From a virus (Duplodnaviria; Heunggongvirae; Uroviricota; Caudoviricetes): 41,033 bases of DNA. The position numbers were made by a program, and so were the translations under genes. Location: IMG/VR virus record IMGVR_UViG_2541047701_000006. One strand, written 5' to 3'. The notes beneath the pieces are model-generated. The model was not told the DNA's origin, did no database searches, and saw only the letters and a list, made by a program, of their open reading frames with translations. Shown one piece after another: positions 9,004 to 10,289 of the stretch; positions within the stretch are counted from its first letter, which is position 1; every line of letters starts with the position of its first letter.

Positions 9004-9338
9004 ACAGTTTAACAACACACTACCGTCGCTCGCAACTGATTGCGCTTCCTGTACCGGGTGGAAAAGCGAAGGTGGAGTATTGCTATGCAGTGAATGTACC
9101 AGGTGACAGGGAAATTGTAACCCACAGATTTGCAGAGTGGGCTGTGGGTGATTTCAACCGGCAGAAGGAGACAGTCCTTTGCAACAAGTTAACCGCTGGT
9201 TCAAAGATCACTACGGAGTGCCCGTCAGAGTCATTCGTTGGGAACCGGAAACACAACGGGTTATCTACCTCCGCGAAGGCTATGAGCATGAGTGCTTCAG
9301 CCCGCTCGAACAGTTTCGTCGTAAATTCAGGGAAATAG
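9000..9338 (+). CDS. Hypothetical protein, YmfM-like by synteny and size (possible prophage cell-division inhibitor)
   Basis: 112-aa ORF coupled (ATGA) to the upstream gene; C-terminal half is low complexity and an alternative frame is open over the same DNA (see findings). Confidence 0.35.
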
Positions 9339-9347
9339 AGGTCGGTC

Positions 9348-10289
9348 ATGAGCACTAAATTAACCGGCTATGTATGGGATGGTTGCGCTGCGTCAGGCAT
9401 GAAGTTATCCAGCGTGGCAATTATGGCCCGCCTGGCTGATTTCAGTAATGACGAAGGTGTGTGTTGGCCATCAATTGAAACCATTGCCCGCCAGATTGGC
9501 GCGGGGATGAGTACCGTCAGAACGGCTATCGCACGGCTGGAAGCAGAAGGCTGGTTAACGCGTAAGGCGCGTCGCCAGGGTAACCGCAATGCGTCGAATG
9601 TTTATCAGCTTAACGTTGCGAAGCTTCAGGCAGCGGCATTTTCTCAACTGTCAGATTCTGACCCGTCAAAATCTGACGCATCAAAATCTGACCCGTCAAA
9701 ATTTGATGCGTCGAAATCTGGCAAAAAAGCGGGTTTTCACCCGTCAGAATCTGGCGGGGATCCGTCAGTAAAATCAAAACATGAACCGTCAGATAAAAAA
9801 CCTTCTCGTCCGGACGCTTCGCAACCGGACACGCAGACGGATGAACAGGATTTTTTAACTCGCCATCCTGATGCGGTTGTATTCAGCCCTAAAAAGCGCC
9901 AGTGGGGAACGCAGGATGATTTGACCTGCGCACAGTGGCTCTGGAAAAAAATCATCGCCCTGTACGAGCAGGCCGCCGAATGTGACGGCGAGGTGGTTCG
10001 TCCCAAAGAACCGAACTGGACAGCCTGGGCAAACGAAATTCGCCTGATGTGTGTGCAGGATGGTCGTACTCACAAACAAATCTGCGAGATGTACAGCCGC
10101 GTCAGCCGCGATCCGTTCTGGTGCCGTAACGTGCTCAGCCCGTCGAAGTTGCGGGAAAAATGGGATGAGCTTTCCCTGCGCTTATCGCCGTCCGTCAGCA
10201 CGCACACAGAAAAACGCGAAGACCCGTACTTCAAAGCCAGTTACGACAATGTGGACTACAGCCAGATCCCGGCAGGATTCAGGGGGTGA
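9348..10289 (+). CDS. Replication initiation protein (O-like, N-terminal winged HTH)
   Basis: N-terminal HTH (VAIMARLADFSNDEGVCWPSIETIARQIGAGMSTVRTAIARLEAEGWL); internal repeat-encoded linker; no separate helicase-loader gene follows. Confidence 0.7.
   Translation: MSTKLTGYVWDGCAASGMKLSSVAIMARLADFSNDEGVCWPSIETIARQIGAGMSTVRTAIARLEAEGWLTRKARRQGNRNASNVYQLNVAKLQAAAFSQLSDSDPSKSDASKSDPSKFDASKSGKKAGFHPSESGGDPSVKSKHEPSDKKPSRPDASQPDTQTDEQDFLTRHPDAVVFSPKKRQWGTQDDLTCAQWLWKKIIALYEQAAECDGEVVRPKEPNWTAWANEIRLMCVQDGRTHKQICEMYSRVSRDPFWCRNVLSPSKLREKWDELSLRLSPSVSTHTEKREDPYFKASYDNVDYSQIPAGFRG
9649..9800. repeat. Iteron-like direct repeats inside the replication gene (candidate phage origin)
   Basis: Eight roughly 15-bp units (CCGTCAAAATCTGAC / GCATCAAAATCTGAC / CCGTCAGAATCTGGC ...) in tandem, followed by an A-rich stretch. 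Confidence 0.55.

Follow-up and report, generated by a model that had tools for sequence, protein, structure and literature searches.

An embedded DUF4222 gene and the drifting tail frame of ymfM in an e14-like prophage

In the viral DNA analysed here (the window, a stretch of 41,033 nucleotides; IMG/VR record IMGVR_UViG_2541047701_000006), a 112-aa open reading frame (ORF) that runs up to a replication gene overlaps a second frame of 59 aa. Which of the two is a gene, and what keeps the other open? In the initial annotation the longer frame had the standing of an established gene and the shorter that of a candidate, for which an overlapping gene, a frameshifted gene or a pseudogene was offered. 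The roles proved to be the reverse, with the 59-aa ORF a conserved Pfam-family gene that RefSeq/PGAP annotates. Of the three explanations, the overlapping gene stands and the other two fall: diverged homologues keep both frames intact and under selection.

The DUF4222 gene and its neighbours

All of the genes in this layout lie on the plus strand. The cII-like regulatory gene ymfL (8419..9003) is situated just upstream of ymfM; its product matches NCBIfam NF041471 (phage_reg_YmfL, E=6e-53) and Pfam Phage_CP76, and it is annotated by PGAP at the 100%-identical E. coli SEC470 locus. The TGA stop of ymfL (9001-9003) and the ATG of ymfM (9000-9002) overlap as ATGA. The 112-aa ymfM ORF (9000..9338), a SfiC candidate whose K-12 counterpart is AAC74232.1 (YMFM_ECOLI), is preceded by a Shine-Dalgarno GGAG (8986..8989) located 10 nt 5' of the ATG. 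Its context, GTGGAGAAACTAACGC-ATG, is found again in other lineages when the 20 nt upstream are compared among 28 representative loci. The ORF is composed of a conserved N-terminal module (codons 1-59, 9000-9176) and a tail without sequence constraint (9177-9335), which overlaps the DUF4222 gene from 9179 and is read in a phase shifted downstream by one base (+1) from that of the DUF4222 codons.

The inner frame is open from 9152 to 9358, as the initial annotation had read it: in the sequence and the ORF list, a TGA at 9149-9151 precedes it and the TAA at 9356-9358 closes it. The AAGGAG that had been singled out as its Shine-Dalgarno motif (9165..9170) is indeed present, within the ymfM codons AAG GAG, and an 8-nt spacer separates it from the TTG start (9179-9181). 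The 59-aa product encoded by 9179..9358 has exactly the sequence originally quoted. Apart from its last 20 nt, which pass the ymfM stop, the gene lies within the ymfM tail.

Downstream is an O-like replication initiator gene encoding 313 aa (9348..10289), with an N-terminal HTH_36 domain (Pfam, E=4e-11) and iteron-like 15-bp repeats at 9657-9720 inside the gene; its relatives in related phages are labelled 'DNA replication protein O' or 'primosomal protein'. The reported overlap of the 59-aa ORF with the start of this gene holds, the TAA stop lying 8 nt beyond the ATG at 9348. The replication gene has its own GAGG (9338-9341) at a 6-nt spacing that we judge reasonable. The ymfM stop TAG (9336..9338), which is made of DUF4222 codon 53, ATA (a rare Ile codon), and the G of the next codon, adjoins this GAGG and ends 9 nt 5' of the replication-gene ATG. 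The ribosome-binding site of the replication gene is the termination point for both overlapping frames.

The 59-aa protein is a full-length member of DUF4222 (Pfam PF13973), scoring 67.8 bits against a gathering cutoff of 27 (E=6e-19) over positions 3-52 of the 53 in the model, and it also matches phrog_1343, phrog_285 and phrog_1153. NCBIfam holds no model for either the DUF4222 protein or YmfM. As is characteristic of the family, the protein is small and stand-alone, with conserved motifs such as G-Y and Cys: across 31 homologues Asp10, Gly13, Gly34, Cys39 and Pro42 are invariant and Tyr35 is nearly so. An AlphaFold2 model predicts a compact SH3/Tudor-like barrel (pLDDT 84). An ATG, GTG or TTG start is kept at the same codon among homologues, and purine motifs of the GGAG/GAGG type occur 5' of these starts at variable spacing. 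When Ka/Ks was compared in each frame across homologues, as dN/dS, the DUF4222 frame gave values of 0.03-0.26, with synonymous sites saturated (pS 0.6-0.83). Judged by this conservation, the 59-aa ORF is a real small phage gene under strong purifying selection, beyond what chance would produce. The initial annotation had envisaged that homologues might conserve the 112-aa frame only; we found the opposite, the alternative frame being the conserved one.

Genome annotations divide along the same line. In the identical genome of E. coli SEC470, the PGAP coding sequence WP_001188051.1 has the same coordinates as the DUF4222 ORF, and the K-12 gene is WP_001250269.1 in RefSeq. The RefSeq/PGAP records that we examined list the DUF4222 gene in place of the 112-aa ymfM, and the legacy K-12 annotation lists ymfM. 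On present evidence both merit annotation.

Further scans of the region addressed regulatory and antisense features. An Rfam scan of 8300-9700 on both strands returned nothing, a promoter scan found no promoter-like sites, and a terminator scan gave only weak terminator-like hairpins at about the level of shuffled sequences. Predicted RNA folding of the DUF4222 start region did not differ from shuffles (z=-0.96). A small hairpin in which GAAGGA pairs with UCCUUU was seen in the folding. Some phage annotators call an antisense ORF at 9083-9355(-), for which no promoter was seen. In 27 of 28 representatives the antisense frame that is in phase with the codons is open, versus ~21 expected after correction for xTA avoidance and Ser codon classes, and we treat this openness as mostly a by-product.

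Conservation, openness and end point of the ymfM frame

The window ymfM is orthologous to K-12 b1148 by both sequence and synteny. The region is 98.4% identical to K-12 at the nucleotide level, and the order of a cI-like gene, a cro-like gene, ymfL, ymfM and the replication gene is shared with K-12 e14; the 112-aa protein is 96% identical to the representative (P0001) of its own 1,295-member cluster. The first ~59 codons give dN/dS values of 0.20-0.43, indicating moderate selection, and a profile search with the N-module recovered 106 representative proteins, many of them stand-alone and 58-68 aa in length. By these measures the N-module, too, is real and under purifying selection. Both ORFs therefore exist, and comparison of homologues shows purifying selection on DUF4222 and on the ymfM N-module.

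The tail behaves differently from either. Its composition is rich in Ser, Thr and Ala, in keeping with the low complexity earlier ascribed to the C-terminal half of the 112-aa ORF, and its apparent dN/dS is 0.9-7. Third positions of the DUF4222 codons vary freely across the overlap, and the amino acids of the tail are not constrained. AlphaFold2 assigns a pLDDT below 50 to YmfM residues 68-112, which are accordingly predicted to be disordered.

Absence of stops in the tail frame was evaluated on 28 representative loci with <90% nucleotide identity. The diverse loci were obtained via DUF4222-centred scans; a scan of genome contigs with the N-module gave 8 loci, and a first viral scan returned near-identical loci only. 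Not one stop occurs in the tail frame of the 28 representatives versus ~58 expected, and the other alternative frame, used as a control, contains 100 versus ~96 expected. Multiplying the probabilities of an open tail frame over 17 sequences whose pairwise pS is 0.5 or more gives 1e-23. Codon choice in the DUF4222 gene follows the same pattern. Where a Val codon could create a tail-frame stop, GTC or GTT is used 77 times and GTG or GTA never, versus 12/36 at safe sites (Fisher 2.5e-7), and Leu at stop-risk codons shows the same preference for codons ending in C or T (1.5e-10). The safe codons at these sites alternate between lineages. Openness by chance is thus excluded by the stop counts, the product of 1e-23, the codon choice at risk sites and the closed control frames.

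Natural controls are also available. In three control lineages, DUF4222 is preceded by a long Rha/KilA-N/ANT (antirepressor) gene and there is no ymfM-like gene; here the tail frame contains 4, 3 and 3 stops versus 2.5, 2.9 and 4.1 expected, and GTG is found at two sites that are protected in ymfM-type lineages. Where a short upstream gene is present and unfused, its stop overlaps an ATG of the tail frame (as ATGA, TAATG or TGATG), and the frame is again open. In the L104/L197 lineage a stop lies at the junction and the tail frame is still open downstream. The lineages in this test are not fully independent and the control lineages number three; read with that in mind, the comparison shows that the tail frame is kept open by selection, and only where a ymfM-like gene feeds it.

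The frame also closes at a particular place. Its stop falls at the same DUF4222 codon (53; index 52 in tables) in 19 of 27 aligned representatives, and exactly 9 nt before the start of the next gene in 20 of 28, with most others within ~11 nt. The stop is always drawn from rare xTA codons (11 ATA, 4 TTA and 2 GTA by column counts). In lineages of the L198 type the tail frame extends 80 nt into the replication gene. Two variants lack DUF4222, and in both the ymfM-like ORF ends on the replication-gene start, in one (L012) as ATGA and in the other (L013) 8 nt past the ATG. Aligned homologues show a conserved closing site for the tail frame only in lineages with a ymfM-like feeder gene.

Readings of the open tail

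We favour, with modest confidence, a model in which 9179-9338 is a dual-coding stretch of the early-right operon of an e14-like lambdoid prophage and the ymfM tail is a ribosome bridge. In this model, the folded DUF4222 protein would be made by independent initiation from its own Shine-Dalgarno motif and TTG. The amino acids of the tail are free to drift, with selection keeping the frame free of stops and ending it before the replication-gene start, usually by 9 nt. Ribosomes that initiate on ymfM would cross the embedded gene in the alternative frame and be released at the ribosome-binding site of the replication gene. Such a bridge would preserve a chain of coupling from ymfL through ymfM to the replication gene, with DUF4222 expressed at its own level. 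We infer that the tail is translated, and that the purpose of this translation would be ribosome delivery or coupling. Our literature search found no paper combining ymfM with ribosome profiling. Counting against the model, the replication gene has a GAGG of its own, and RNA folding at its start is like that of shuffles (z=0.12), showing no significant structure for which coupling would be needed. The junction stop of the L104/L197 lineage and the 80-nt extension of the L198 type into the replication gene also speak against it. Moreover, the DUF4222 stop overlaps the replication-gene start, so that ribosomes translating DUF4222 could supply the coupling, which leaves the need for a second lane unexplained.

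The tail could instead be a functional part of YmfM: a disordered extension that acts through its length or composition and not its sequence, serving SfiC, for instance, as a degron for proteases or as a flexible arm for binding. Selection would in that case remove stops, since a truncated YmfM would be inactive. This possibility, which we regard as unlikely but deserving of weight, draws on the predicted disorder, on the fusion of the tail to each of the three types of N-module found in Enterobacteriaceae phages, and on the filamentation that follows expression of the whole ymfM ORF, as described in a preprint (bioRxiv 10.1101/2020.11.19.390815). It is difficult to reconcile with the several lineages in which the tail frame is a separate ORF whose ATG overlaps the upstream stop, the commonness of stand-alone N-modules of 58-68 aa, the loss of the tail in two natural variants and the complete lack of amino-acid constraint. 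It also offers no account of why the stop is held beside the replication-gene ribosome-binding site by means of rare xTA codons.

We consider it very improbable that DUF4222 is the sole gene across 9179-9358, with ymfM running through by chance and its 112-aa length an artefact of legacy annotation. In favour of this view, ymfM goes uncalled by PGAP and is without a family in Pfam and NCBIfam, and the tail, with its apparent dN/dS above 1, resembles out-of-frame noise; the stop counts, codon choice and control frames nevertheless rule out chance statistically, and the N-module is conserved together with its own Shine-Dalgarno motif and ATG.

Still less probable is a programmed -1 ribosomal frameshift near 9152-9180 that yields a single fusion protein of the YmfM N-module and DUF4222. 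Relative to ymfM, DUF4222 does lie in frame -1, the SD-like AAGGAG lies within the junction, and a few such fusions exist in databases (P0031, P0053, P0060, P0065 and P0090). However, 9000-9358 contains neither a slippery heptamer of the X XXY YYZ type nor a homopolymer run of five or more, the DUF4222 frame has a stop only nine codons 5' of its conserved start codon, and the zero frame does not end early after the junction but runs for 53 more codons. The in-frame fusions are rare, form small clusters and differ in their junctions, a pattern consistent with occasional indels or errors of assembly. With no heptamer, a start codon present in the second frame and a zero frame that continues, we rejected a programmed site. 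The idea of a frameshifted pseudogene decaying within a cryptic prophage was likewise rejected and has next to no probability. Although e14 of K-12 is defective and its neighbouring replication gene is truncated, neither ORF is disrupted in the window or in diverged homologues. Functional phages, SfII and SfIV among them, and Klebsiella phages preserve the layout of two frames, which is under purifying selection in many diverged lineages, with dN/dS well below 1 for DUF4222 and the N-module.

Overlaps of this kind are unusual: selection retains an open frame that lacks amino-acid constraint, and does so only where there is an upstream gene to feed it. Such a pattern points to selection on translation itself and not on a protein. 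If the ymfM tail does serve as a translated bridge, phage early operons would possess a further mechanism for linking genes at the level of translation.

SfiC and comparison with known systems

The overlap bears on the identity of SfiC. With the use of an ORF clone and a deletion, ymfM (b1148) of the K-12 cryptic prophage e14 is reported as the long-sought SfiC, an SOS-inducible inhibitor of the FtsZ ring and division, and a clone of the K-12 ymfM ORF is described as blocking Z-ring formation and causing filamentation (bioRxiv 10.1101/2020.11.19.390815). K-12 e14 ymfM is the same gene in the same place as that of the window. The preprint treats ymfM as one 112-aa gene and the embedded DUF4222 ORF goes unmentioned there (bioRxiv 10.1101/2020.11.19.390815). 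The whole Pfam-matched domain and its ribosome-binding site fall inside the ymfM ORF coordinates, so a ymfM ORF clone should also express DUF4222 and a deletion should remove both. Since selection keeps both frames readable, published clones and deletions of ymfM would touch two proteins. As the coding layout stands, these experiments cannot tell YmfM from DUF4222 as the cause of filamentation, and the embedded gene reopens the identity of the active SfiC product. We hold only tentatively that the tail is a bridge without a protein function of its own, with the corollary that the SfiC product could be DUF4222 and not YmfM.

A role has been described for another small DUF4222 protein, RgdR (ECs1581) of the EHEC O157 prophage CP-933C, which is pleiotropic, activating the LEE/T3SS and repressing motility (PMC3378721, PMC10877973). 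Activation of the LEE by RgdR requires an RGD tripeptide at residues 20-22 (PMC3378721). The 59-aa protein of the window shares the DUF4222 domain with RgdR and has Arg-Trp-Glu at residues 20-22, which sets it apart from the RgdR subfamily. RgdR also differs in its length of 99 aa and its location in a P4-like element, away from a replication gene.

The arrangement of the two frames recalls several classical systems. Lambda G/GT and dnaX are examples of programmed -1 frameshifting; as in those cases, two frames stand in a -1 relation with an SD-like element near the junction, but the present pair lacks a slippery site, its second frame starts independently and its zero frame continues past the junction. 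In phage lambda Rz/Rz1, one gene lies entirely inside another in its +1 frame, and the two proteins, each constrained in sequence, are partners in one function. The present pair is similarly an out-of-frame gene within a gene in a lambdoid phage, with an inner ORF (9179-9358) that has its own start inside the outer one (9000-9338). It differs in that amino-acid constraint is found in one frame of the overlap and not in both, the host-frame tail showing instead stop avoidance and a fixed end point. Finally, translational coupling via stop/start overlaps such as ATGA and TAATG, known from trpE-trpD and many phage operons, joins adjacent genes. The ATGA of ymfL and ymfM, the ymfM stop 9 nt before the replication-gene ATG and the ATGA or TAATG junctions of the unfused relatives all resemble such coupling, whereas the bridge proposed here would span ~53 codons and pass over another gene in a different frame.

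Two genes in overlapping frames

The two open reading frames (ORFs) belong to an e14-like lambdoid prophage of E. coli and lie in its immunity and replication region. A LexA-family cI-like repressor gene on the minus strand (end near 8122) is followed by a cro-like gene (8194–8391), the cII-like ymfL (8419–9003), a 112-aa ORF (9000–9338), a 59-aa ORF (9179–9358), and an O-like replication gene (9348–10289). The segment 8950–9400 shares 100% identity with E. coli SEC470 and 98.4% with K-12; of 5426 complete E. coli genomes, 2652 contain a match to it. The 112-aa ORF, whose overlap with ymfL is ATGA, is the legacy K-12 gene ymfM (AAC74232.1, YMFM_ECOLI); it has no PGAP annotation in the identical genome or in K-12 and no family match in Pfam or NCBIfam. 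The product of the 59-aa ORF is a full-length member of Pfam family DUF4222 (67.8 bits, cutoff 27, E = 6e-19), and RefSeq/PGAP carries a CDS for exactly this ORF (WP_001188051.1 in the identical genome, WP_001250269.1 in K-12). Phage annotations disagree here, calling YmfM, the 59-aa ORF, or an antisense ORF. The initial annotation had located the second frame correctly in every detail (open from 9152, Shine-Dalgarno AAGGAG at 9165–9170, TTG at 9179, 59-aa product); the overlap of its stop with the replication-gene start is borne out by the sequence and the ORF list.

That annotation had left open an overlapping gene, a frameshifted gene, or a pseudogene, and had proposed Ka/Ks in each frame. 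Homologous loci were gathered from phage records, one-genome-per-species contigs, IMG/VR, and assembled metagenomes, and the window was compared with nine diverged relatives (Klebsiella phages, Raoultella, Citrobacter, Phytobacter, and several metagenomic lineages). The DUF4222 frame gave dN/dS values of 0.03–0.26, with synonymous sites saturated (pS 0.60–0.83), and ymfM codons 1–59, the N-terminal module, gave 0.20–0.43. The remainder of ymfM, the tail that overlaps DUF4222, has an apparent dN/dS of 0.9–7 in its own frame, the pattern typical of a frame that is carried along by another frame under selection. All four bases are used at the third position of four-fold sites in DUF4222 codons, and these free positions result in radical changes in the tail frame. 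AlphaFold2 predicts a compact, confident DUF4222 fold (pLDDT 84) and a moderately confident YmfM N-terminal module, with residues 68–112 (the tail) below pLDDT 50.

The dN/dS values exclude a pseudogene. A frameshifted gene fares little better: there is neither a slippery heptamer nor a homopolymer, and the DUF4222 frame has its own conserved start. Programmed frameshifting was rejected, as the DUF4222 frame has a stop 9 codons 5′ of that start and the zero frame continues for 53 codons. Rare database proteins joining the YmfM N-module in frame with DUF4222 at differing junctions (P0031, P0053, P0060, P0065, P0090) are too few, small, and heterogeneous to support it and most likely arose from indels or misassembly. 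The overlapping-gene option stands, with two real genes in two frames sharing ∼160 nt and selection acting at the protein level on both DUF4222 and the ymfM N-module. Separately, a near-identical relative (L025, 1680–1859) has an internal stop in DUF4222 (W7 to stop) and an intact ymfM frame, and is a natural DUF4222 knockout.

The ymfM tail is selected only for openness and a fixed end point

Stops were counted across DUF4222 codons 1–51 in 28 representative DUF4222 genes with <90% nucleotide identity to one another, and expectations were obtained by synonymous-codon resampling using the codon usage of the loci themselves. The tail frame (+1 relative to DUF4222) is free of stops in all 28, against ∼2 expected per sequence and ∼58 in all (probability of being open, 0.007–0.15 per sequence), whereas the other alternative frame has 100 stops against ∼96 expected. 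For 17 sequences with pairwise synonymous differences of at least 0.5, the product of these probabilities is 1e-23. Val codons at which a G or A ending would make a stop are exclusively GTC (28) and GTT (49), whereas at Val positions without this risk the same genes use GTG or GTA in 12 of 36 cases (Fisher 2.5e-7). For Leu, at-risk positions carry CTC or CTT and safe ones mostly CTG (1.5e-10). Which safe codon is used differs among lineages (at one site, 13 have GTC and 13 GTT), a pattern of repeated avoidance rather than of a single inherited state.

The end point of the frame is conserved too. Of 27 aligned representatives, 19 place the tail-frame stop at a single shared DUF4222 codon. The stop is made of a rare ATA, TTA, or GTA with A or G as the next base, though the DUF4222 residue varies among Ile, Leu, and Val. 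It lies exactly 9 nt 5′ of the replication-gene start codon in 20 of 28 representatives, adjoining the purine-rich motif of that gene (in the window, TAG 9336–9338, GAGG 9338–9341, ATG 9348), and within ∼11 nt of the ATG in most other lineages. Where DUF4222 is mostly deleted, with only its last ∼10–17 codons left (L012 and L013, from an Atlantibacter MAG and Entomohabitans), the ymfM-like ORF is shortened to 75–78 aa and still ends on the replication-gene start, through ATGA in L012 and 8 nt beyond the ATG in L013.

Dependence on the upstream gene and a possible translational bridge

Three control lineages (L211 type, L237/L238 type, and L261) have a long Rha/KilA-N/ANT-type gene before DUF4222 and no ymfM-like gene there. 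Their tail frames contain 4, 3, and 3 stops, against 2.5, 2.9, and 4.1 expected, with GTG at two sites protected in other lineages; L261 has the unfused order cII-like gene, stand-alone ymfM N-module (68 aa), KilA-N/ANT gene, DUF4222, replication gene. Providencia-like and related lineages keep the short upstream gene separate from the tail frame, its stop overlapping a tail-frame ATG (ATGA, TAATG, or TGATG), and here too the tail frame is open. N-terminal modules of three types, including MNSLNRMRPAKQFRCLP... and MTSLTAFNRLPQLRMIP..., all enter DUF4222 in this frame. Together, these observations indicate that openness tracks a short upstream gene that feeds ribosomes in. To the best of our knowledge, the dual-coding selection signature has not been described before, nor have its dependence on the upstream gene and the fixed termination point; singly, ymfM was already known from K-12 and DUF4222 from Pfam and PGAP. 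The full-text literature searched yielded no link between them and no paper combining ymfM with ribosome profiling, and the five papers in it that mention DUF4222 appear not to concern ymfM.

Several loci depart from the common arrangement. In L104/L197 (IMGVR_UViG_2791355160_000001), an upstream tail-frame ORF of 145 aa terminates at a TGA overlapping the DUF4222 ATG, and the frame is open for 52 codons beyond (P about 0.04); this TGA could be a recent nonsense mutation or a site of stop-codon read-through. L198-type loci (e.g., L198 1061–1447) carry another ORF, 128 aa long and with a short N-terminus of unrelated sequence, that crosses DUF4222 in the same +1 frame and extends ∼80 nt into the replication gene. 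In a recombinant relative (L016 1498–3162, IMGVR_UViG_2534681940_000023), the ymfM frame never closes and joins a long downstream ORF with a Rha-like C-terminus, giving 553 open codons. Large repeat proteins (P0235, P0244, P0255, P0258) match the YmfM profile weakly (E 1e-9 to 1e-5) through a repeated LPPGGGNVTYCYTVENTG-type unit, which may reflect a shared beta-hairpin motif or be spurious.

We favor a role for the tail as a translational bridge, a purpose that we infer. Ribosomes translating ymfM would traverse the embedded, separately initiated DUF4222 gene in the tail frame and let go at the ribosome-binding site of the replication gene; the coupling chain of the operon would stay intact, and the TTG start of DUF4222 would set its expression. 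Counting against this proposal, the replication gene has a reasonable Shine-Dalgarno of its own, the DUF4222 stop likewise overlaps the replication start, and local RNA folding revealed no significant structure. The main rival holds that the tail is a disordered part of YmfM that is needed but insensitive to sequence. However, the ATGA-coupled lineages have the tail as a separate ORF, N-modules stand alone at 58–68 aa, variants without the tail exist, and the stop position is fixed. Passing ymfM ribosomes could open a small hairpin at 9164–9180, in which GAAGGA of the DUF4222 Shine-Dalgarno pairs with UCCUUU, covering the first two TTG bases, although this hairpin does not differ statistically from shuffles (z = −0.96).

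Neighboring features and comparison with characterized systems

The antisense ORF (90 aa, 9083–9355, minus strand) is codon-in-phase with DUF4222, and an ORF on that strand is called by some phage annotators. Of 28 representatives, 27 have this frame open, compared with ∼21 expected once xTA avoidance is taken into account, and a search for a promoter-like site found none; the antisense ORF is probably a by-product, incompletely explained. Within the replication gene, four copies of a 15-bp unit, TCTGACCCGTCAAAA (or 2.1 copies of a 30-bp unit), at 9657–9720 encode a repetitive SDPSKSDASKS stretch. These repeats resemble the iterons of an origin that lies inside its initiator gene, the arrangement known from lambda ori.

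A preprint (bioRxiv 10.1101/2020.11.19.390815) reports ymfM to be SfiC, the e14-encoded, SOS-inducible inhibitor of Z-ring formation. Its evidence comes from a deletion and from 'the open reading frame' cloned under arabinose induction, and it makes no mention of an internal ORF. The Pfam match spans DUF4222 residues 2–53, and their codons, together with AAGGAG and TTG, fall within 9165–9337, inside the ymfM ORF. By inference from these coordinates, a clone of that ORF would also carry a translatable DUF4222 domain lacking only the last six residues, and a ymfM deletion should take out DUF4222 too. Because the domain lies inside the ORF, the published data do not say which product blocks division. 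One DUF4222 family member has been characterized: RgdR (ECs1581, EHEC prophage CP-933C), a 99-aa protein that activates LEE/T3SS and represses motility, binds DNA only weakly and non-specifically, and requires an RGD motif at residues 20–22 for activity (PMC3378721, PMC10877973). The DUF4222 protein of the window has R-W-E where RgdR has RGD.
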